A stretch of 64,000 bases of DNA, taken from contig JBAYJA010000003.1 in NCBI GenBank assembly GCA_041665345.1, positions 39,202-103,201 of the forward strand, given 5' to 3'. Made by a program: the position numbers and the translations under genes. The DNA is from Patescibacteria group bacterium. Lineage in GTDB: Bacteria; Patescibacteriota; Patescibacteriia; PEXW01. Below, in pieces: positions 23,736 to 32,790 of the stretch. Numbering within the stretch: position 1 is the first letter of the stretch; each line of letters opens with the position of its first letter. The notes under the pieces were generated by a model. That model had not been told where the DNA came from, did no database searches, and was given only the letters and a program-made list of their open reading frames with translations.

Positions 23736-24428
23736 TCACTTTTTTGGGGTGCAGGCGTATACCCTATGTACTGTGAGATCTTTTTCTCCCTCTGCCATGA
23801 GCATTCCCTTTGTATCAACAATTCGTATGCTGTAGCCAAGTCGCTTCGCATGGTTTTCAATTTCGTCCAAACGCGCATACGCACTCGTTCCAATGAGCAC
23901 AACTCCTGATGCTGTAAGAAAAGCTGGTGCTTCCTTCAAGAATTGTTGCAGTGCGTTGTAGTTCTCATCAAAGCCTGATTGCAGAAGAATGTCCGTAACC
24001 GGCGACTCCGCCCGGTTAAAAGGGTGATTCCAGAAAATGAAGTCAAACTTTTCTTCATTCCGGAAGGCAGCAAATAAATTACTTTCCCTTACGTCCATTT
24101 GTACGGCAAATCTCTGAGCATTGAGTAAACAGTTTTGGACAGCGGCTGGATTGATATCGGTGGCAGTTACCGTTGCACCATGTAACGCAGCAAAGACCGC
24201 AACGATGCCCGTTCCAGTCCCAATCTCCAGCAATTTTTGTTTCTGAACAAGTTTTGGGATTACGTTTGCGAAATACGCACTATCTGTAAAGTATTTGGGG
24301 GAAAAAACTTCAGGGAGCACCAAAATCTTTTTTCCAAAAATTTCCACTTCATAAGGCGTGGCGTGCTTCCGCATTTTTGCAAATTGTTGCTCTACTTTTT
24401 TTGACCATTCTGGGTAGTCCATATTCAA
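23736..24428 (-). CDS. SAM-dependent methyltransferase, small-domain (MTS/HemK/RsmC-like) family
   Basis: Motif I LEIGTGTGIVAVFAALHGA, D-I-N at ...TATDINPAAV and the motif IV variant NHPF (NPPY-like). Confidence 0.7.
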   Translation of the reverse strand: MNMDYPEWSKKVEQQFAKMRKHATPYEVEIFGKKILVLPEVFSPKYFTDSAYFANVIPKLVQKQKLLEIGTGTGIVAVFAALHGATVTATDINPAAVQNCLLNAQRFAVQMDVRESNLFAAFRNEEKFDFIFWNHPFNRAESPVTDILLQSGFDENYNALQQFLKEAPAFLTASGVVLIGTSAYARLDEIENHAKRLGYSIRIVDTKGMLMAEGEKDLTVHRVYACTPKK

Positions 24429-24562
24429 AAAGAATAATAATCCAGAGACTGCTCGAAGTTTGAATCTGGTAGCCCTTATAGGAAAAGGCTGGAATCAGCT
24501 TATTGTAAGTCTTGTTAGTTTCAACGAGTTATATAGTGGTCAATTTTCCGAGCAACAGCAGG

Positions 24563-25702
24563 CTACTCTAAATTTGGCACCTGCCCATAATGTGTGAGCC
24601 CATTGTGTAGTAGATTGTATATTTCCATGTCGGGCAAAGGGTGCTTAGTAAAGCGCTCGATAATTGCTACATGCTCTGCTGGGTCAGCCTCTTTATCAGT
24701 TTGGTAGTGAAATGAAAAATTAGTTATATATAAGGCATTCTCGCTTGCGGGATTTTTTTCATCATGTTCGCCCAATTCTTCAACATTGTTTCGGATATCC
24801 ATAAACCAGGGCTTATCGGGGAAATTTAATCCAGGCGTTAAAATGCAGTTAATATCAATAAAGATCATAAATGGCATGTCACCTGGATTTTGCGTCATTG
24901 CGGATTTGATTAACCTACCAACATCTCCACGGATTAACTGCTCTTCATGCATTACTCCAGGTGTATGGATAACACCAGGTCTATGACGACTCTTCGCTTC
25001 TACAGCGACTCTTATTCCTCTCTCTTGATGGGTTGCTATGAACTCGCAATGTCTCGTTTGTGGCTTGCTCCTATCAAGAAACTCAATGGTGAATCCAAGT
25101 TGAGTAAATAAAGACGCGATTGCTACTTCATAGCGTGCGCCCTGGTATTGATTTTGGTCTTTCAATCTATTCAACAAACGTACGGGAAGTTTGGCACGAT
25201 GCTGAAGGCAGTAAATATCAAAAGCTAAAGACAATAGAGACCTGCTCCAACCATCAGGAATTGCGCTCCATTTTTTATTTTCAGAATTTTGAGCAGTAGC
25301 ATTCTTTTGTTTCCATGCTTGGAAATGTATGTAACATTGAGTAATAAAGTGTTGCTGCACAGAAGGTAATTGTAGCTGATCCTTTATCCATGCCCGTCCT
25401 AAAGTAACTGCGAGAATATCTATCAGAAACTCATGAAAAGTTTGTTCTATTGGAAGAGAGTGGAACAATCTTGAACCAACTGCTCTAACTCGTTTACCTT
25501 GAAAAATACTTTGTACGTGTGGGAGAAAGTACCCTTGTGCTTGAAGTCGTGATTGCTCAGCCTGCATGTCAAGAATGTATTTTTTAACAGCCTGAAAATC
25601 CTCAGGAGTCGGAGGATTGTTATCAGCATCATGATGACATTTTTTATACTTCTTCCCACTGCCACAATGGCATGGATCATTCCGACCAATTTTTTTTGTC
25701 AT
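24563..25702 (-). CDS. SEC-C motif protein fused to a PD-(D/E)xK (Mrr/restriction-endonuclease-like) fold domain
   Basis: N-terminal RNDPCHCGSGKKYKKCH SEC-C zinc motif. Later YEVAIASLFTQLGFTIEFLD ... IRVAVEAKSR fits the E / D / ExK nuclease core. Overlaps the upstream gene by 26 nt. Confidence 0.55.
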   Translation of the reverse strand: MTKKIGRNDPCHCGSGKKYKKCHHDADNNPPTPEDFQAVKKYILDMQAEQSRLQAQGYFLPHVQSIFQGKRVRAVGSRLFHSLPIEQTFHEFLIDILAVTLGRAWIKDQLQLPSVQQHFITQCYIHFQAWKQKNATAQNSENKKWSAIPDGWSRSLLSLAFDIYCLQHRAKLPVRLLNRLKDQNQYQGARYEVAIASLFTQLGFTIEFLDRSKPQTRHCEFIATHQERGIRVAVEAKSRHRPGVIHTPGVMHEEQLIRGDVGRLIKSAMTQNPGDMPFMIFIDINCILTPGLNFPDKPWFMDIRNNVEELGEHDEKNPASENALYITNFSFHYQTDKEADPAEHVAIIERFTKHPLPDMEIYNLLHNGLTHYGQVPNLE

Positions 25703-26897
25703 TCGGTACTAATTTAGCACTGTTGTCTACAAGATATTTTTGAAGTGCGGGAGGTAGATCTATGCTTCCTGCATCGTGTAATTTGACCCCCACAATTTGC
25801 TTGAACAATGACATTGCCGATCGAAAAACAAGAAGGGCATCTGCCTTTTCATTTCTGGGTTTACGTGCCCAGAAGTGTAGGTAAGAACGACGAACGCCCT
25901 GGATGTCTGAAAACTTTTTTTGCTGCTCTGGTGGGATACGATTGAATGCCTTTAATACACCTAATCTTCTTTCGTGCATCAACCTCTCAAAAGTCCTCTG
26001 GAAAAGCAAAGCCTCCTCCTCTTCGGTGATCGGATGATTTTTAAAAGTCACACTGCTTGTTTTCCAAAGAAAAATTGCTAACATTTCTCCAACAACACCA
26101 CAAACAGCGATGCAAGAGAGGTAGTCACCCAGGCAAAAGTTTCTCTTTGCAGAAACCAAGGGATCCACAAGGTATTTCGAAATTTCTGGATGAGCGGAGA
26201 CGATACCTTGGTGCGTTTCAATTGTCGTGGCCTCGACATATCGATCAAGTATTTCCACAGTTAAGTCAGTCACTTGCCTTTGAAAAAACTCTCCTAATTG
26301 AAAGGATGTGTGGGTAAACTCATCTTTGATTCCATCTGCAGTTATATCCCCATAAGAAAGATAGTCCTTAATTTGAGTACGTTTGATAATTGGGCCAAAT
26401 ACACCAAACTTAATTACTGCTTTCTTGGGGCCACTTTTGGGCAACAACTCCTTTACTGCGTCCTGAACATCTGTTTCCCAGTTCTCAAAAGAAACAAGAG
26501 CGGGTTGTGTTGGAATAGCATCAAACTCACTTTGTGTAATACCTTCAATTTTTTCCCATGACAAACCTAGAGCATTAAAGGTAAGTGGATTAGGGACGTG
26601 CCTTTTGTGCAATTCTGGGAAAGGGAGAACCGCGAATACGTCAGTAGGATTGCTAATGGATTTAATAAGACGAACATTTTTTATGTCCACTAGGCTCCTA
26701 CCATCTTGCAATATATCCAGCTCTTCTTGAGTCTTTTGTGTAAAGTCATCAACCTTAAGCCCCAATGCATTTCGTGTAATGGAGTCAGGGATTAGGAACC
26801 TTTTCCCGTGGTTGATGATATATTTTCTTCCATCTGGCCCCTGTGCTTTGTCCATAGAATTACGTAGTTGTTTTCCTTTTTCTATATAATTTTGCAC
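25677..26897 (-). CDS. hypothetical 406-aa protein, translationally coupled to the SEC-C/nuclease gene
   Basis: GTG start at 26897, or ATG at 26855. No recognisable domain. Tight overlap with both neighbours. Confidence 0.5.
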   Translation of the reverse strand: MQNYIEKGKQLRNSMDKAQGPDGRKYIINHGKRFLIPDSITRNALGLKVDDFTQKTQEELDILQDGRSLVDIKNVRLIKSISNPTDVFAVLPFPELHKRHVPNPLTFNALGLSWEKIEGITQSEFDAIPTQPALVSFENWETDVQDAVKELLPKSGPKKAVIKFGVFGPIIKRTQIKDYLSYGDITADGIKDEFTHTSFQLGEFFQRQVTDLTVEILDRYVEATTIETHQGIVSAHPEISKYLVDPLVSAKRNFCLGDYLSCIAVCGVVGEMLAIFLWKTSSVTFKNHPITEEEEALLFQRTFERLMHERRLGVLKAFNRIPPEQQKKFSDIQGVRRSYLHFWARKPRNEKADALLVFRSAMSLFKQIVGVKLHDAGSIDLPPALQKYLVDNSAKLVPNDKKNWSE

Positions 26898-27411
26898 GCT
26901 CCAAAATTGGTTCTAGTTCTGCTAGTTTTTCATCTAGTTCTTCAAGGCTTAGACCTTCCAAGAACCCATTGTGCAAGACGGAGGATTTGTACAAGTCGCG
27001 TAATTTGTAAGCCTTATCTAGCCCATTAGCGCGCGCTCGCCAATCAGGGTTATCCAGTAGACCTAAATGAACTTGTAAAAGTTTCTCATCGGGCAAGCTT
27101 TCGGTCATCAACTCCTGCCAACCCTTACTCTTCGTAAGCTCCTGAGGCTTTTCGGCAGATCGGTCACTGTAACCCCCTTGGCGCATAGCAGCAGAGACCG
27201 ATTTTCGGGGATTTTCGGATAAAATACGGGCTACGTTGCGCTGTTTGTGAGTAGGCATATCTAACCTAATTATACCCTCAAAACAGCGTTCTGTGACCAA
27301 CTCTGGACCTATAAACGGGTTTCTAGCTAGCCTTCTTACCCCCGCGATACTTAAAGGCCCTCCTAAAGCCTTTGTCTTCAGCCTCTTCGACAGTAGCGCA
27401 ATAGAACTCAC
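26860..27411 (-). CDS. HTH protein with Terminase_2 (phage terminase small subunit)-like DNA-binding motif
   Basis: ...KSVSAAMRQGGYSDRSAEKPQELTKSKGWQEL resembles the NATQAAIRAGYSEKTA...N motif of Terminase_2. The start is uncertain (GTG 27411 or ATG 27258) and overlaps the Mrr-like gene. Confidence 0.4.
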   Translation of the reverse strand: MSSIALLSKRLKTKALGGPLSIAGVRRLARNPFIGPELVTERCFEGIIRLDMPTHKQRNVARILSENPRKSVSAAMRQGGYSDRSAEKPQELTKSKGWQELMTESLPDEKLLQVHLGLLDNPDWRARANGLDKAYKLRDLYKSSVLHNGFLEGLSLEELDEKLAELEPILERAKLYRKRKTTT

Positions 27412-28438
27412 CCTTTCGTGTTTCTATTTTAGTTTTATCGTATTGCTGGTCGAAAGGAAGATGATATATCTTTGTACTATCTACCTTTGAAATGTTGCAC
27501 TTAATACAGGGGTATTGTTTATCTAATGGTAAGTTTTCTTTTAATTCGATATGAAGCTCAGATGCAAAACGGCGAGCGAGATCGGAAAGCTTAGTTGCAG
27601 TGTAGAAAATCGCACGAACTTTTTTATCTGGATTTTTATCTTTGTATTGGAAAACCGTGCCAAAAAATTGAAAAATGTGTTTTTCATATATAGTTCTAAA
27701 TTGTGCCCAATTTTTACATTGCACAATTATAAAGTCTTTACCTTTTCGACAGATCAAATCGCGCCCTAGATCCTCGAAGCCTTTTAGTATACCCACATAC
27801 TCAACATCATATCCCTCTGCTTCAAATAGAAATCCAATGTACCGTTCATAAATCCTACCAATTAACCAGGATGATTTTGGGCGTTTCCAAAATCGATCCA
27901 GAGCCATTTGATTCCGTTCAACACTTGGGAGTTTACGGTATTCTTCCTTTGAGAGATATTGAGTAACCTGATCTACCTTTTCTTCATCAGAGTACTCCGC
28001 GAACATTTTCCGATCCTCTTCAGTTGGAACATCAACCTCTTCTTTTAAATCAACAAGAAAAGGAGCTATCGATTCATAGTATTCAATTATGTACTTTGCG
28101 ATACGAGCTTCTTTCTCTGCTTCACGTCGTAATCTTGACTGTTCTTTCACAACCTCACTGGCTTGGATTGCGGGATGTTTTTTTCTTCTTAAGTAATCAG
28201 ACTGGGCTGCGTCACGGGCTTTAAATAACTCTTTATAAGCATTTGCTAGCCATGGAAATCCCTGTTGGCGTTCTCGAGCCATTTGATGCACACCCTCTTC
28301 AAGTTTTTTATACCATGCAATACCGACATTACGTTCTTGTTTTTCAGATTTTAAATATAGTTCGTAGGATGATTTTTCTGAGGCGATTAACCTAAGAATG
28401 TTATTAAGTTCGTTTTTCTTTTCTTCAAAATATCCCAT
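27323..28438 (-). CDS. Mrr-like (PF04471-type) restriction endonuclease with N-terminal coiled-coil region
   Basis: ...RIYERYIGFLFEAEGYDVEYVG...GFEDLGRDLICRKGKDFIIVQCKNW... matches the Mrr_cat E / DxGxD / QxK pattern. The N-terminal roughly 180 aa are charged and helical. Confidence 0.7.
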   Translation of the reverse strand: MGYFEEKKNELNNILRLIASEKSSYELYLKSEKQERNVGIAWYKKLEEGVHQMARERQQGFPWLANAYKELFKARDAAQSDYLRRKKHPAIQASEVVKEQSRLRREAEKEARIAKYIIEYYESIAPFLVDLKEEVDVPTEEDRKMFAEYSDEEKVDQVTQYLSKEEYRKLPSVERNQMALDRFWKRPKSSWLIGRIYERYIGFLFEAEGYDVEYVGILKGFEDLGRDLICRKGKDFIIVQCKNWAQFRTIYEKHIFQFFGTVFQYKDKNPDKKVRAIFYTATKLSDLARRFASELHIELKENLPLDKQYPCIKCNISKVDSTKIYHLPFDQQYDKTKIETRKGEFYCATVEEAEDKGFRRAFKYRGGKKAS

Positions 28439-28441
28439 AAA

Positions 28442-28798
28442 TTATAGTTTATTTTTTGTATAGCTGCATGATGGGTAATTAGCGCATCCCCAAAATGCAC
28501 CATACCGCCCGCTTCTTGGTATCAACGTACCTCCGTCATTTGGGCATTTTAGTCGGTTATCATTTTTCTCAAGCAGCATTTGATGAATAAATCCTCTGCC
28601 CTTAACTTTTTCATTGACCTCGTCCGGCATGATAGATGGCCCGAGTTGAACAATTTCTGAAACTAAAGTGGCTGTGTCTAAATTACCAGCAACCTCAAAA
28701 GCAGCTTGATCTCGAAGCTTTTGACGATGTTTGTCAACGAAATGTTTAACAACACTCCAAATTATAATTATGGCTACAATTGCCCAAAATACGTACAT
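28442..28798 (-). CDS. membrane-anchored topoisomerase-type C4 zinc-ribbon protein (zf-C4_Topoisom)
   Basis: N-terminal TM MYVFWAIVAIIIIWSV. C-terminal KCPNDGGTLIPRSGRYGAFWGCANYPSCSYTK is the TopA-type zinc-ribbon signature. Its stop is 4 nt from the Mrr-like start. Confidence 0.65.
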   Translation of the reverse strand: MYVFWAIVAIIIIWSVVKHFVDKHRQKLRDQAAFEVAGNLDTATLVSEIVQLGPSIMPDEVNEKVKGRGFIHQMLLEKNDNRLKCPNDGGTLIPRSGRYGAFWGCANYPSCSYTKNKL

Positions 28799-28859
28799 AT
28801 TCTAATTATACGCTTAAAACAATTATCTGTGATGATTGCTGTATTATATTCGCGCTAGC

Positions 28860-29111
28860 CTAGATTCCTATAATGGCCGCCTTAACATCTCCCCGCTTTT
28901 TTCCCCAGCCTTTCCAAGATAATCCTTTTTTACCCTTTCGTTTAGTTCTTTGAGCTTTTAGTTCTTCGGTTGCTAAATCTCTAAGGGATCTCATTGTAGG
29001 GTCGTCCCCATCATCCTTTATGCTTTCTTGGATGCCACGATTCAGCGCTTTAGTAAACCTTTGGCCCCAGTTTGTACTAGGTCTTCTAGATTTTTTAACA
29101 CTTTTTTTCAT
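28860..29111 (-). CDS. small basic hypothetical protein
   Basis: 83 aa, Lys/Arg-rich (MKKSVKKSRRPSTNWGQRFTKALNRG...KRKGKKGLSWKGWGKKRG). First gene downstream of the membrane protein in the operon. Confidence 0.4.
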   Translation of the reverse strand: MKKSVKKSRRPSTNWGQRFTKALNRGIQESIKDDGDDPTMRSLRDLATEELKAQRTKRKGKKGLSWKGWGKKRGDVKAAIIGI

Positions 29112-29122
29112 AATGATTCAAA

Positions 29123-29494
29123 CTAAGAAAATAACTTATATATTAAACCCATAAATAACCAAAAACATGGGATTGCTAAACCAAAAATTGTTATCCATCC
29201 GTGATAGTAAGTTGAGATTGCGCGACCATCAACATTTTCAGACGCTGCTGATTTCCAGAAATATGTTAATTTCTTATTGTGAAGGCTTCCGATTAACCAA
29301 AATGCTGTTACGTAAATGACGCCGAGTGTTAAGCCAGTGCTACCATATTGCCAAATTATACTGCCACCAATTAGCAATGTGGCCAAAGTTTCTTGAGTTT
29401 CCTTTTTCTTTACATGGCTACGCCATAGGAGTAAATATCCTAAAACTCCAGTTATTGAAATTATGAAAAAGTTTGCAATTATATTCCAATCCAT
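29123..29494 (-). CDS. small multi-TM membrane protein
   Basis: MDWNIIANFFIISITGVLGYLLLW... with 4 predicted TM segments. Start at ATG 29494 is preferred over 29563. Confidence 0.45.
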   Translation of the reverse strand: MDWNIIANFFIISITGVLGYLLLWRSHVKKKETQETLATLLIGGSIIWQYGSTGLTLGVIYVTAFWLIGSLHNKKLTYFWKSAASENVDGRAISTYYHGWITIFGLAIPCFWLFMGLIYKLFS

Positions 29495-29628
29495 ATCTCT
29501 GAACGGTTTTATCTGGTAGAAAGCACAAAGCCCCCCGCCAGCGATGACCTTTCGGCCACCCATACCCCTTTCGGAGCATGACCGTTCAGAGTGCTCTGGA
29601 CGAGGAGCTTTATACTCTGAACGGTTTT
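29495..29628. promoter_or_regulatory. repeated 13-14 nt motif (CTCTGAACGGTTTT) in divergent intergenic region; candidate operator sites
   Basis: ctctgaacggtttt at 29497-29510 and 29615-29628 (direct), accgttcagag at 29581-29591 (inverted). These sit between the divergent genes 29123..29494(-) and 29739..30557(+). Confidence 0.35.
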
Positions 29629-29738
29629 GTTGCCATGCCCTAGCAAAGCTAAGGTTTAGGCGATAAAATTAAATTGCTAGTATTTATACTTCAATTGCTT
29701 GATAATTAGAGTGAAACATATCAATTTTACTCGAAAAA

Positions 29739-30557
29739 ATGATAAATGTAAAGGATAATCCGAGTCTTTCAAAGGCGTATTATCGGTGGTTACGAAGAAA
29801 AAAGACCGTGGATTTTGATGTTCTACGTAGTGGATTTTTGAATGCGAATAAAACGTATCTCCATCAAATCAAGTCGTGTATAAATGATGATAAGTTTCAT
29901 AGCATTATGTCAGTTGGAATGGAAGTCGCAGCGTTCTTTAATGCAAACAGAGCGTATTCGGGCTATGAAACTTTAGTAGAAAAAAACATTCTCCCAAAAA
30001 AGGTTTTTAAAATAAAACCACTGACTGAGACATCAGAGGACTTTGCAAATCATTTAATCAATAAATACCATTTGTCAGAAACTACGCTTAGAGAACTCTC
30101 CGAAATTGCGTTTAAGTATCTTCGATCGATTCTTTCAAAGACGAAAAACGGTATACTTCCTTTAGAAAAGGCGAGGTCAGTACAATTCATAAACAATTGC
30201 ATCGATAGATATTTCCCGATTTTAATCCGTTATCTTAAAAAGAAGTACAAATTAAAAAAACTTATATATCTTCGCAAGATAAATAGTCACACATGTAACA
30301 CAGCATGTCCTCGTTGTGGCAAACTTTTGATACGGACGAAAATATATGAACGATGTACAAGGACAGAGAACCGGCATTGCCAAATGGGTTCTAACGCACT
30401 CAGAAGAGGAAGGAAAAAAGATGACAAAAGCTTTGTTGGTAGTTGTAGTTGTTGTGGGGTGTTTTCCCCTTTACTCAAAAGCCACGTATTAAGTGGCGAA
30501 CAACTGCTTTTTTGCAGCCAAAGGTGTTATGAAAGAGTAAGAAAAAAACTTCACTAA
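29739..30557 (+). CDS. AT-rich hypothetical protein with C-terminal Cys-rich (zinc-finger-like) region
   Basis: 272 aa. C-terminus ...HTCNTACPRCGKLLIRTKIYERC...HCQ...CSCCGVFSP...CSQRC. Followed by a terminator. Confidence 0.45.
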   Translation: MINVKDNPSLSKAYYRWLRRKKTVDFDVLRSGFLNANKTYLHQIKSCINDDKFHSIMSVGMEVAAFFNANRAYSGYETLVEKNILPKKVFKIKPLTETSEDFANHLINKYHLSETTLRELSEIAFKYLRSILSKTKNGILPLEKARSVQFINNCIDRYFPILIRYLKKKYKLKKLIYLRKINSHTCNTACPRCGKLLIRTKIYERCTRTENRHCQMGSNALRRGRKKDDKSFVGSCSCCGVFSPLLKSHVLSGEQLLFCSQRCYERVRKKLH

Positions 30558-30576
30558 TTTTAAGTAAAGCTGAATT

Positions 30577-30597
30577 GGCCCATAATGGGCTTTTTTT
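30577..30597 (+). terminator. rho-independent terminator
   Basis: gccca taa tgggc hairpin followed by ttttttt. Confidence 0.6.
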
Positions 30598-30860
30598 GTT
30601 TCCCATTTAATTATGTCCAAAAAGCTGGGGATAAGTTAGCGCGTGCATAATCAAAATGTCGCGAGGAGCACACTCACAGTGCTCAAAGGGCGACAGTAAA
30701 TAAATCCTTTGAAGATTGTGAGCTACGCCTCTAGACCAGCTCGCCAAACGGTGATGATAAGCAGTCTCATAGTACTAGCAGTAAATACTATAAGACTACT
30801 ATCACCGGCGGCAGACTGGGGAGAGGGAAGGTGCCTTAAGTAACTAATCCGGTGGGTAAT

Positions 30861-31043
30861 ATGTCAACTAAGCGACAAGAAGCAAACCAGACAAAGCAGA
30901 TCAGGGTTGCAAAAGGTAACCATAAAGGGTTGAAGATTTTTGCCGCTCGCGAAGGAATGCCAATGATGGCCTTAGCAGATCAAATTATCAGCCAATATCT
31001 TTACGAAACATATCGCTGGCCAGAATACCATGTTGACGATTAA
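30861..31043 (+). CDS. small putative ribbon-helix-helix-like regulator upstream of integrase
   Basis: MSTKRQEANQTKQIRVAKGNHKGLKIFAAREGMPMMALADQIISQYL has a beta-strand then two helices. GGTGGG SD before ATG 30861. Confidence 0.35.
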   Translation: MSTKRQEANQTKQIRVAKGNHKGLKIFAAREGMPMMALADQIISQYLYETYRWPEYHVDD

Positions 31044-31221
31044 ACAGTGTAGACAAATTGAGCCAAGCCTTTCTGAACTTTCTGATGAGGAAATTGTTCA
31101 TCTTCGTGATTCTATGTATGAACTAGCCACTCTGGCTTTTGAATCCACTCAAAAACAAGGGGGTGTTTCCAAAAATCCCACTTGGGTAATGCCAACTTTT
31201 AAAGAAGACGCTAATATATAA
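31030..31221 (+). CDS. small hypothetical protein upstream of integrase (low confidence)
   Basis: 63-aa ORF overlapping the previous stop by 14 nt and ending 6 nt before the integrase start. Confidence 0.3.
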   Translation: MLTIKQCRQIEPSLSELSDEEIVHLRDSMYELATLAFESTQKQGGVSKNPTWVMPTFKEDANI

Positions 31222-31226
31222 ATGCG

Positions 31227-32756
31227 ATGACTACTAAAGAACAAAATATCAAACGAGGAGTTATATACGTTCGTGTTTCCTCAAAAGATCAGGTAGATAA
31301 CACCAGCCTTGAATCTCAGGAAAAGGCCTGTGGGGAGTATTGCCTTCGAAACCATATTGAAGTTGTTAAAGTTTTTATTGAACAAGGTGAATCCGCAAAG
31401 AGTGCAGATCGGACAGAGTTTAATAAGGCAATCCAATTTTGTGGCATCCAAAAAAATAACATTGGGTATTTTGTTGTTTACAAACTTGACCGCTTTGCTC
31501 GAAATCAAGAAGACCATGTGACTGTTCGGGCATTGTTAAAAAAGTATGGCGCTGAGCTGAAGTCGGCAACTGAACCGATCAATGATTCGCCAATAGGAAA
31601 AGCGATGGAAGGTATGCTTTCAGTTTTTGCAGAGTTTGATAACAATGTTCGTACTGAACGAACACGGGGAGGAATGCTTGAAAGAATTCGACAAGGGGCT
31701 TGGGTTTGGTCTGCGCCGCTTGGATATAAACGTGTGGGCGGGGTAAAAAATATCTCGCCGGATGAATTAACTGCGCCACATATAAAACAAATCTTCAATT
31801 TGTACGCAAAAGGCATATACACGTATAAGGCAATTGCTAATTTAATGGACACGGCTGGAATGCGCACGAGGTATGGCAAGCGCCCACGCGCTCAGCTGAT
31901 TGAGAAGATACTACGCAATCCAATTTATTACGGTCACATAGAGGCGTTTGGTGAAGAACACAAAGGTAGTTTCCCGCCATTGATTAGTGAAGAGCTTTAC
32001 TTAAGTTGTCAGCCAAACAGCAAGAACTTAAAAGGCCACGCGGCACCTCGATCGGCAAATAACCCCATGTATCCGCTTAGAGGAGTTGTAGTGTGCGAAG
32101 AGTGCGGCACGAGTTTTACAGGAAGTACTTCTACAGGGCGTGCCAGTCAACGATATTCCTATTATCATCATTACAAAAAAAGTTGTTCTAAAGCCAAGAG
32201 CATCCCTCGCGAATCTTTTGAACAAGAGTTCGTAGAGTATTTGGAGTCAATTACGCCAAGCCTAAAATACGAAAAATGGTTTAAGGCAATAGTTATCGAT
32301 ATTTGGCAAAATAACTACAAAAACATTAGCTCACAAAATCAGAAAGCGAGATTAGAGCTTACACGACTTGAGGCTGAGAGAGATCGTGTATTTACCATGA
32401 TGCGTCAAGGCAAGCTAACTGATGACGAGTTTAGTGAACAAAAAAATGCCGTCAATTTACAAATAGCGAATAAATACCAGCAGCTGAATGAAAAGCAGTA
32501 TGAGGGCTTAGACATGGAGAAAACTTTAGACGCCTGTTTTAGCTTTGTTCGAAACACAGCAAAAACCTGGCGCGAGGCCGATTATGCTGGGCGATTACAA
32601 TTCCAGAAACTTGTTTTTCAAGATAAGCTCCAATTTAATGGGAAGAGGTTTGGAAACGCCAAATTGTCCCCAATCTACGAGATGAATAGGATGTTTGACG
32701 GGAATAAATCTAGCTTGGTAGCCCCACGGGGAATCGAACCCCGATTACCGGCTTGA
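31227..32756 (+). CDS. large serine recombinase (serine integrase)
   Basis: Resolvase catalytic domain GVIYVRVSSKDQ (nucleophilic Ser), recombinase domain, and a C-terminal Zn-ribbon CEECGTSF...YYHHYKK.C, coiled coil. The last 41 nt overlap tRNA-Glu on the other strand (...GIEPRLPA reads through the T-arm). Confidence 0.9.
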   Translation: MTTKEQNIKRGVIYVRVSSKDQVDNTSLESQEKACGEYCLRNHIEVVKVFIEQGESAKSADRTEFNKAIQFCGIQKNNIGYFVVYKLDRFARNQEDHVTVRALLKKYGAELKSATEPINDSPIGKAMEGMLSVFAEFDNNVRTERTRGGMLERIRQGAWVWSAPLGYKRVGGVKNISPDELTAPHIKQIFNLYAKGIYTYKAIANLMDTAGMRTRYGKRPRAQLIEKILRNPIYYGHIEAFGEEHKGSFPPLISEELYLSCQPNSKNLKGHAAPRSANNPMYPLRGVVVCEECGTSFTGSTSTGRASQRYSYYHHYKKSCSKAKSIPRESFEQEFVEYLESITPSLKYEKWFKAIVIDIWQNNYKNISSQNQKARLELTRLEAERDRVFTMMRQGKLTDDEFSEQKNAVNLQIANKYQQLNEKQYEGLDMEKTLDACFSFVRNTAKTWREADYAGRLQFQKLVFQDKLQFNGKRFGNAKLSPIYEMNRMFDGNKSSLVAPRGIEPRLPA

Positions 32757-32790
32757 AAAGCCGATGTCCTAACCGTTAGACGATAGGGCC
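32716..32790 (-). tRNA. tRNA-Glu (anticodon UUC)
   Basis: RC gives GGCCCTA TC GTCT AACGGTTA GGAC A TCGGC TTTTCAA GCCGG TAATC GGGGT TCGATTC CCCGT GGGGCTA CCA, a cloverleaf with T-loop GTTCGATTC, anticodon loop UUUUCAA (UUC) and encoded CCA. Closely resembles bacterial tRNA-Glu. Confidence 0.85.

Follow-up and report, generated by a model that had tools for sequence, protein, structure and literature searches.

Two genes whose reading frames overlap by 26 nt raise the question of whether they form a dedicated functional pair or simply lie side by side. We take up this question for a locus within a 64,000-nt stretch of DNA from a Patescibacteria group bacterium (assembly GCA_041665345.1, contig JBAYJA010000003.1), referred to here as the window. 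An earlier note had described the locus as a two-gene module, in which a SEC-C/nuclease fusion of 379 aa is translationally coupled to a domainless partner of 406 aa, and had likened it to sensor/effector defense pairs.

Both reading frames and their overlap are found at the positions given, on the minus strand (Table 1). The partner does exist as a maximal ORF of 406 aa beginning at GTG, but as a gene it is shorter: all gene callers, those of NCBI and JGI included, choose the ATG at 26855, which lies 4 nt past the stop codon of a 132-aa upstream gene and yields a protein of 392 aa. The 379-aa protein (P0001) is identical in NCBI, JGI, ENA and Logan, and the 2335-nt region, along with the run of eight A residues (A8) in the overlap, is 100% identical across three assemblies (ENA, Logan, JGI). 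Because these assemblies agree, the overlap cannot be attributed to an assembly error. A frameshift at the A8 run is ruled out on the same grounds, and also because the SEC-C ATG falls exactly at the N-terminus typical of the family. Reading of the sequence further indicates that a -1 slip at the overlap would not reach the SEC-C frame, and that no Shine-Dalgarno-like sequence lies 5′ of the SEC-C ATG. The overlap falls where the upstream protein is not conserved, in its C-terminal tail, and we infer that it probably couples translation of the two genes locally.

Table 1. Features of the locus, numbered by position in the window.
Feature	Position	Strand	Remarks
SEC-C protein gene	24563..25702	-	ORF, 379 aa; PD-(D/E)xK-like
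SEC-C zinc knuckle	25631..25684	-	residues 7-24, CxCx8CH; Pfam PF02810
PD-(D/E)xK-like core	24653..25147	-	residues 186-350; predicted, from AF2 and conservation
E192 codon	25127-25129	-	conserved 76/76
E220 codon	25043-25045	-	74 E + 2 D of 76
E235 codon	24998-25000	-	conserved 76/76
K237 codon	24992-24994	-	conserved 76/76
Reading-frame overlap	25677..25702	-	26 nt; contains A8 run at 25690-25697
HEPN-like protein gene	25677..26855	-	392 aa; ORF extends to GTG at 26897
HEPN-like domain	25716..26408	-	residues ~150-380; invariant Rx4H motif
Rx4H motif	25875-25892	-	RRSYLH in translation
132-aa gene	26860..27258	-	gene calls in L111 and L113; 4 nt upstream of HEPN-like gene
Promoter-like element	27266..27296	-	GTCACA-17-TATAAT; consensus match only, putative function
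MTS-family methyltransferase	23736-24428	-	134 nt downstream of SEC-C gene; GC 0.44
Low-GC island	24430..32790	.	~8.4 kb; GC 0.36-0.45 vs flanks 0.51-0.57; left boundary approximate
Large serine recombinase	31227-32756	+	Resolvase, Recombinase and Zn_ribbon_recom domains
tRNA-Glu	32716-32790	-	island end

The upstream protein does contain a domain: over its C-terminal ~240 aa it is a member of a family of 622 representatives (E<=1e-3), most of which are stand-alone proteins of about that length. Just three residues, E257, R322 and H327, are invariant among 59 diverse members. AF2 models this domain as helical, and the Foldseek matches of highest probability are the HEPN structures 2hsb and 1o3u (TM 0.55-0.61, E ~1-3). 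Pfam HEPN models do not match the 392-aa protein itself; among the 59 relatives there are nine family-level Pfam matches, to DUF4145, HEPN_Cthe2314 and HEPN_Apea (best E=8e-5). The N-terminal extension of ~145 aa is poorly predicted and common to few relatives, and searches of PADLOC, PHROGs and NCBIfam return nothing for either the 392-aa or the 132-aa protein. Taken with the invariant Rx4H motif, these observations point to a probable divergent member of the HEPN superfamily, and a putative Rx4H RNase. A family so far called "hypothetical", with over 600 representatives, thereby becomes assignable to that superfamily. As the protein carries Rx4H, it is more likely a second effector than the sensor it had been supposed to be. 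No nucleotidyltransferase domain is found in the 132-aa or 379-aa neighbors, so the arrangement is not that of a HEPN-MNT toxin-antitoxin system.

Do the two families travel together? Using tblastn and HMMs, we find the partner family within 8 kb of the SEC-C family at 0 of ~80 loci; conversely, the SEC-C family HMM matches at 0/22 partner-family loci. The nearest homolog of each gene also lacks the other. The closest SEC-C homolog (63% identity) lies after dnaK, and the sole full-length homolog of the partner (49%) is followed by an unrelated gene, which we considered as a cryptic SEC-C relative and which proved not to be one. In general, the SEC-C family has no conserved neighbor: clustering of the neighboring genes reveals none common to more than 9 of 78 loci, and these 9 have it at scattered positions, and a Pfam tally of the genes at ±1 yields no family in more than 3/150. 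Genes tightly coupled upstream of SEC-C homologs elsewhere vary, and include a Type I S subunit, a HEPN_Cthe2314 protein, and proteins with weak, sub-threshold matches to SduA_C-like and M78 peptidase models. The HEPN_Cthe2314 case, at locus L045, represents a second and independent adjacency of HEPN and SEC-C genes, with the former abutting the latter; when compared, this HEPN protein was not a member of the partner's family.

These data bear directly on the proposal of an obligate sensor/effector defense pair, in which the large upstream protein senses and the SEC-C nuclease executes. The 26-nt overlap, with its downstream ATG devoid of a Shine-Dalgarno sequence, the shared putative operon, the stability of the arrangement in three assemblies and the different HEPN protein at L045 are all what such a pair might look like; set against them are the zero co-occurrence in both directions, the solitary nearest homologs, the effector-type Rx4H motif of the upstream protein itself, and the position of the overlap in a non-conserved tail. 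The co-occurrence test has already largely refuted the proposal, and we regard it as very unlikely. The note itself had named homologs that never co-occur as evidence against its reading, and that is what we observe. With the proposed two-gene system absent, there is no new defense pair here. Tight overlap as a sign of co-expression remains plausible in this genome. The overlap, the shared operon and the L045 adjacency also make a functional link within this genome conceivable. On balance, we think it reasonably likely that the locus consists of two independent single-gene modules stacked on a mobile island, rather than a dedicated pair. Genes of the SEC-C family normally occur alone, and the relatives of its HEPN-like neighbor are usually stand-alone proteins.

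What, then, might the SEC-C protein do by itself? The N-terminal motif is as first described: PF02810 matches the protein with E=8e-9 and 35.6 bits, above the Pfam gathering cutoff of 20.4, and the matched segment translates as RNDPCHCGSGKKYKKCHH. The same motif is matched by Pfam in 35/38 family members, and its cysteines are kept in 61-63 of 76. We find 830 homologs, the best 120 of these 830 being full length, and 190 matching stretches in a collection of species-representative genomes. The 76 homologs that were aligned come from more than 10 phyla and share 31-63% identity. The family reaches across Patescibacteria, Actinomycetota, Acidobacteriota, Planctomycetota and others, a distribution that is widespread yet rare and patchy; in IMG/VR viral contigs the family is absent. 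To date, its members have been annotated only as "SEC-C domain-containing protein". PADLOC detects nothing in the 379-aa protein beyond the SEC-C motif. After the SEC-C knuckle comes an alpha/beta middle region that is conserved (residues 30-185), and then a predicted core of the PD-(D/E)xK type.

The AF2 model of the 379-aa protein is confident (pLDDT 88.9, pTM 0.86), and its DSSP elements (H186-201, E204-208, E221-225, E231-238, H253-269, E278-283) follow the alpha-beta-beta-beta-alpha-beta order that is canonical for PD-(D/E)xK enzymes. In the model, the first helix bears E192, strand 3 holds E235-x-K237, and E220, in the "PD" position, stands where strand 2 begins. The catalytic triad first proposed stands in two of its parts, E192 in YEVAIA and E235-x-K237 in VEAKS (76/76); the aspartate of TIEFLD is kept in only 54/76, and E220 takes its place. 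This middle acidic motif has the form H-[C/P]-E-F, and reads P-E in 18/76 members. The best-probability Foldseek matches in PDB and BFVD are PD-(D/E)xK nucleases of several families. The structural matches are weak, though almost all fall on nucleases of this superfamily, mostly on Hjc (prob 0.98), HindIII, DdmD, FokI, RecU/PrfA, Cas4 and VRR-NUC; the match to Hjc spans only ~57 columns, and none in PDB has E<1e-3. Overall, the topology and the acidic/ExK signature of PD-(D/E)xK enzymes are present in the predicted structure, which lends weak support to a nuclease-like fold.

Comparisons of sequence profiles do not connect the family with nucleases. Pfam Mrr_cat (PF04471) matches residues 187-240 with E=0.026 and 15.1 bits, below its cutoff of 21; the location agrees with the predicted core segment, and Mrr_cat is matched, even weakly, in only 2/38 family members. 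We also compared the family and core-only profiles by hhalign with an Mrr_cat subfamily profile, built from homologs of the neighboring Mrr gene, and obtained a probability of <1%. Alignment to a single Mrr protein covers the first helix only, again with a probability of <1%, and the core-only profile retrieves no nuclease from the PDB sequences. We do not assign the protein to Mrr_cat, given its sub-threshold score and these hhalign probabilities. If the core is what its fold and invariant residues suggest, it would be a metal-dependent endonuclease with its active site at E192, E220 and E235-x-K237, and the N-terminal parts may regulate or target it. For a large family annotated by its SEC-C motif alone, this constitutes an active-site hypothesis.

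It is also possible that the protein is not a nuclease at all, and that the SEC-C motif tethers a body with a non-catalytic or other enzymatic role, perhaps associated with the ribosome or SecB in the manner of YecA and YchJ. The SEC-C motifs of SecA, YecA and YchJ are protein- or ribosome-binding modules, the family profile matches the metal-binding tails of SecA, YchJ and 2I9W in PDB (over the SEC-C motif only), and neither fold nor sequence yields a significant nuclease match. This idea must contend with invariant charged residues at exactly the positions and spacing of a PD-(D/E)xK site. Nor does the protein resemble YecA or YchJ over its full length, an outcome that the note had listed as contrary to its reading: the NCBIfam equivalogs reach the 20-residue motif only, with 23-33 bits against cutoffs of 140-267. 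(The label "YecA family protein" on one homolog, P0017, is likewise supported by no more than the SEC-C motif.) A housekeeping role, moreover, is ill suited to the rare and patchy distribution of the family. We consider a non-nuclease function unlikely, and retain the predicted nuclease core as our working model.

The genomic setting is that of a mobile element. The SEC-C gene is the terminal gene of a low-GC island that encodes a large serine recombinase and ends at a tRNA-Glu gene. Att-like direct repeats flanking the island were not found, as would be expected for a serine integrase. The 132-aa gene, whose product has no Pfam or PHROG match, probably opens the transcription unit, which would also comprise the HEPN and SEC-C genes. 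The promoter-like element upstream of it is duplicated at 28802-28832, 5′ of a Zn-ribbon/Mrr gene pair, as seen by direct repeat, promoter scan and alignment. The locus illustrates how a compact integrase island can stack effector genes in the CPR, a group whose defense content is poorly charted. Elsewhere, serine recombinases are found near SEC-C homologs at 7/80 loci (8-kb flanks on each side), and in 4 of those 7 the recombinase lies within ~1.5 kb upstream. Plasmid-borne homologs adjoin a tyrosine recombinase and a Type I R-M system. The ±1 neighbors of the family are not conspicuously rich in PADLOC defense genes, so a defense role would be argued from context only. Such a role would cast the 379-aa protein as a self-contained effector on mobile elements, of a restriction-like or abortive-infection type.

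Might the SEC-C protein instead serve the island, for instance by aiding excision, replication or addiction, or by forming a stabilizing toxin-antitoxin-like pair with the HEPN protein, and have no part in antiviral defense? Its recurrent closeness to serine recombinases (and to a tyrosine recombinase) and its terminal position on the island would fit, yet the 8-kb surroundings of most of the 78 loci are free of recombinases, the family keeps no conserved neighbor, and we find neither an MNT-type antitoxin nor any other known antidote. We judge such service to the island to be improbable. Another thought is that restriction-modification is at work, the SEC-C protein being the endonuclease and its counterpart the methyltransferase encoded just downstream on the same strand, 134 nt away, whose GC content lies between the values of island and flank. 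This we consider extremely unlikely: relatives of the methyltransferase occur at 0/80 SEC-C family loci, DNA methylases make up only 2/150 neighbors, and most enzymes of the MTS family methylate rRNA or proteins. We return to the two stacked, independent modules as the preferred reading, and ask which known systems they resemble.

The predicted core may be compared with the PD-(D/E)xK nucleases of the Hjc/Mrr type, with which it would share the alpha-beta-beta-beta-alpha-beta order, the glutamate of helix 1, the acid of strand 2 and the ExK of strand 3; its residue spacing would resemble that of Hjc. As with Mrr-type enzymes, the gene stands alone in variable, mobile contexts. The SEC-C family differs in having glutamate for the "PD" aspartate, in carrying an extra conserved N-terminal region of 150 aa plus the SEC-C knuckle, and, with respect to Mrr, in the lack of threshold or hhalign similarity described above. 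The C-terminal metal-binding domain of SecA, YecA and YchJ have the same CxCx8C[HC] zinc knuckle; in the 379-aa protein the motif is N-terminal and the remainder is unrelated. Shedu (SduA) and other single-protein nuclease defenses appear to follow an analogous logic, with a PD-(D/E)xK effector and N-terminal regulatory domains on one polypeptide, although Pfam SduA_C does not match the 379-aa protein, and the SduA_C-like match mentioned above is to a neighbor, at one locus. The upstream protein, for its part, shares the all-helical domain and invariant Rx4H with DUF4145, Cthe_2314-like, Apea-like and HEPN-type abortive infection proteins, and differs from these in its N-terminal extension, in having no Pfam HEPN match of its own, and in the lack of an MNT antitoxin neighbor.

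By architecture, the closest described system to the 379-aa protein is Rugutis (pUCCL633_059), a single-gene antiphage system with an N-terminal SEC-C motif, encoded on a lactococcal plasmid (Grafakou et al. NAR 2024, PMC11381338; Mosterd et al. PNAS 2025, PMC12184496). Rugutis acts by abortive infection triggered by a phage large terminase, and so provides a precedent for one protein with an N-terminal SEC-C motif being a complete antiphage system (PMC11381338, PMC12184496). It is 359 aa long, with the SEC-C motif in its ~20 N-terminal residues, and its confident AF2 model finds no significant counterpart in PDB (PMC11381338); neither report proposes a nuclease site (PMC11381338, PMC12184496). 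Size, architecture, carriage as a single gene on mobile DNA, and a high-confidence model of a body without a significant PDB match are thus common to both, whereas antiphage activity and the terminase trigger have been demonstrated for Rugutis, and the 379-aa family is known from sequence alone.

These likenesses raise the prospect that the 379-aa protein is a true Rugutis homolog with the same mode of action. Searches of PLSDB gave no Lactococcus match to the full protein, a Firmicutes homolog or its core (tblastn, E<=10), or to the bare motif. Among other plasmid matches, those in Enterococcus, Klebsiella, Pontibacillus and Vibrio have the SEC-C motif at the C-terminus, and those in Bacillus and Alkaliphilus, at 226 and 158 aa, are short and differ in architecture; an N-terminal SEC-C protein of A. 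baumannii has the motif alone in common with the 379-aa family. Since other N-terminal SEC-C proteins have unrelated bodies, the motif by itself is no proof of homology. Weighing the shared architecture against these searches, we hold true homology to be somewhat doubtful.

A bolder reading, which we think unlikely as a whole, makes the SEC-C family a cross-phylum form of Rugutis-type single-protein immunity. The SEC-C knuckle elsewhere docks onto ribosomes or SecB. The family's seemingly "fold-less" body may be a cryptic PD-(D/E)xK nuclease that the knuckle places or gates, and in this CPR island the SEC-C protein may be wired to a HEPN RNase through one operon. Should the overlap's A8 tract lose one A, the two effectors would become a single fused polypeptide, and the tract could possibly serve as an on/off or fusion switch. 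Finally, if the 379-aa family is related to Rugutis, its predicted active site would provide a concrete candidate for the mechanism of Rugutis itself.

The two overlapping genes that the earlier note described are real. Their frames share 26 nt, and because three assemblies (ENA, Logan, JGI) agree at 100% identity over the 2335-nt region, the overlap is no assembly artefact. The SEC-C gene's ATG coincides exactly with the start of the family N-termini (MKIGRNDPC), and the overlap maps to the non-conserved tail of the upstream protein. The length of 406 aa needs revision: in public gene calls, the upstream gene begins with the ATG at 26855 (392 aa), 4 nt past the stop codon of the preceding gene. 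Inside the overlap lies a run of eight A residues, present as A8 in all three assemblies; loss of one A would bring the HEPN-like ORF in frame with the SEC-C ORF (…DKKIGRNDPC…), giving a single fusion protein.

Features of the low-GC island and its edges (window positions)
Feature	Position	Strand	Description
Methyltransferase	23736-24428		MTS family, NHPF motif
SEC-C protein ORF (cargo 7)	24563-25702	minus	379 aa, ATG start
A8 homopolymer	25690-25697
Upstream HEPN protein, maximal ORF (cargo 6)	25677-26897	minus	406 aa, GTG start
Cargo 5	26860-27258	minus	132-aa protein
Promoter-like element	27266-27296		31 nt, before 132-aa gene
Cargo 4	27323-28438	minus	371 aa, long N-terminal region + Mrr_cat + NCBIfam 'sunset' domain
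Promoter-like element	28802-28832		31 nt, before zinc-ribbon gene
Cargo 3		minus	Top1-type zinc-ribbon protein
Cargo 2		minus	83-aa protein
Cargo 1		minus	146-aa protein
Serine recombinase ORF and tRNA-Glu gene	31227-32790

The proposal that the pair forms a two-gene module is not supported, as the two families do not co-occur in either direction. Partner tblastn and partner-family HMMs gave no match in the 8 kb on either side of about 80 loci of the SEC-C family, and the SEC-C family HMM gave none in 22 partner-family loci. No SEC-C neighbour stands beside the full-length partner homologue (49%) or a 243-aa relative. The nearest SEC-C homologue (63%; JBBTVB010000002.1) follows dnaK and lacks a partner; it belongs, with HD_4, Fic and Trypco2 genes, to a variable insertion that separates dnaK from dnaJ. 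In a second locus, too, dnaK lies immediately upstream. Clustering of all 1362 neighbouring ORFs yielded no conserved neighbour, and each Pfam family among immediate neighbours occurs in at most 3 of 150. Tightly coupled upstream genes, where present, vary between genomes: a Type I S subunit, HEPN_Cthe2314, several unknowns, and weak, sub-threshold matches to SduA_C-like and M78 peptidase proteins. The HEPN_Cthe2314 case, in an unrelated metagenome-assembled genome (locus L045, 6816-7559 and 8001-8936), is a second, independent HEPN/SEC-C adjacency: a 247-aa protein adjoins the SEC-C-family gene with a 0-nt gap, and by hhalign it is unrelated to the HEPN-like family of the window.

Pfam confirms the N-terminal SEC-C motif (E=8e-9, residues 7-24). 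YecA and YchJ models match this motif alone; the protein is therefore no housekeeping protein of the SEC-C type. AlphaFold2 gives a confident model (pLDDT 88.9, pTM 0.86; 38-sequence alignment), in which the zinc knuckle is followed by a long helix and then a three-stranded sheet with a helical region (residues 30-185). The predicted core beyond it (H186-201, E204-208, E221-225, E231-238, H253-269, E278-283) has its elements in the alpha-beta-beta-beta-alpha-beta order known from PD-(D/E)xK nucleases. In a 76-protein family alignment (31-63% identity), E192, E235 and K237 of the triad proposed earlier are invariant (76/76 each), whereas the D of its TIEFLD motif is kept in only 54. Q187, R179, R241 and N285 are likewise conserved in 76/76 each and D283 in 73/76; position 220 is E in 74 and D in 2, and in 18 members it is preceded by proline, so that the PD motif there reads 'PE'.

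Foldseek found no PDB match at E<1e-3; the matches of highest probability were Hjc resolvase (0.98, 57 columns), DdmD, HindIII, FokI, RecU/PrfA and MunI, and structural matches in BFVD were Cas4, VRR-NUC, RecU-type (PrfA-like) resolvases and generic PD-(D/E)xK proteins. Mrr_cat reaches only a below-cutoff E=0.026 and is seen in just 2 of 38 members; hhalign against an Mrr_cat subfamily profile found no similarity, and the core profile found no nuclease among PDB sequences. As confirmation from sequence methods is lacking, we regard a PD-(D/E)xK nuclease as probable, not established. The 'nuclease fusion' of the earlier note is plausible.

The upstream protein, previously called domainless, has a C-terminal HEPN-like domain. 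A word-indexed search returned only 12 relatives, one full length (49% identity) and the others of ~240 aa, equivalent to this domain; an exhaustive profile search extended the family to 622 representatives. Only E257, R322 and H327 are invariant among 59 diverse members, giving an Rx4H motif; Pfam matches in these are DUF4145 (5), HEPN_Cthe2314 (3) and HEPN_Apea (1). AlphaFold2 models the C-terminal domain well (pLDDT 80-94) and the N-terminal 145 residues poorly. The top-probability PDB matches are the HEPN structures 2hsb and 1o3u (TM 0.55-0.61), with non-significant E-values. We take the protein for a divergent HEPN-superfamily member and a probable RNase, with an effector role likelier than a sensor role.

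For the SEC-C protein, 830 relatives are detectable; the top 120 are full-length proteins (39-63% identity), mostly from Patescibacteria metagenome-assembled genomes, with SEC-C as sole Pfam domain. When one genome per species was scanned by pattern, 190 stretches coding for a relative were matched, in Patescibacteria, Actinomycetota, Acidobacteriota, Planctomycetota, Omnitrophota, Nitrospirota, Desulfobacterota, Eremiobacterota, Bacillota and Pseudomonadota; the family thus has a sparse but very broad distribution. It is also plasmid-borne in Caballeronia, Agrobacterium and Rhizobium, and none was found among IMG/VR viral contigs. Plasmid-borne members are longer: 477 aa in Agrobacterium (pAt1D1609b) and 496 aa in Caballeronia (p2, L114 2829-4319). 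The Agrobacterium copy (region L115 4190-6434) shares 17 nt with a 275-aa gene upstream that matches PHROG 7075 (unknown function).

Both genes lie in a low-GC island (~24.4-32.8 kb; GC 0.36-0.45 versus 0.51-0.57 in the flanks) that carries a large serine recombinase and ends at a tRNA-Glu; no flanking direct repeats were found. The recombinase ORF enters the opposite-strand tRNA-Glu gene by 41 nt, its last residues (…GIEPRLPA) being the antisense translation. In 7 of 80 other loci a serine recombinase occurs in the 8 kb on either side of the SEC-C homologue, in four of them ~1.5 kb or less upstream, and one plasmid copy is flanked by a tyrosine recombinase on one side and a Type I R-M system on the other. 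Given its intermediate GC (0.44), the methyltransferase that directly follows the SEC-C gene downstream may be where the island's gene content ends; at other loci it is not found together with the SEC-C family. In the JGI assembly of this island (L113 2923-4013) the Mrr_cat/'sunset' gene is broken into two pieces of 183 and 157 aa. The 132-aa protein has no Pfam or PHROG match; its N-terminus (KQRNVARILSENPRKSVSAAMRQGGYSDRSA) may resemble the helix-turn-helix of small terminase subunits. Because the promoter/operator-like element (TCACAGA…TGTTTT…GTATAATTAG) is duplicated, each -10 box only 7-11 nt ahead of an ATG, the sequence points to two transcription units under shared control and perhaps leaderless, the second comprising the 132-aa, HEPN and SEC-C genes.

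Most likely, then, a small integrative island carries two independent effector-type genes, one SEC-C/PD-(D/E)xK-like and the other HEPN-like, which are stacked and expressed together. As to a possible homology with Rugutis, the single-gene antiphage protein of a lactococcal plasmid, Lactococcus plasmids in PLSDB gave no match to the SEC-C family, and an N-terminal SEC-C motif is also borne by unrelated proteins. The SEC-C protein, a putative nuclease, represents a new architecture among stand-alone nuclease-type accessory or defence proteins, themselves a known kind of gene.
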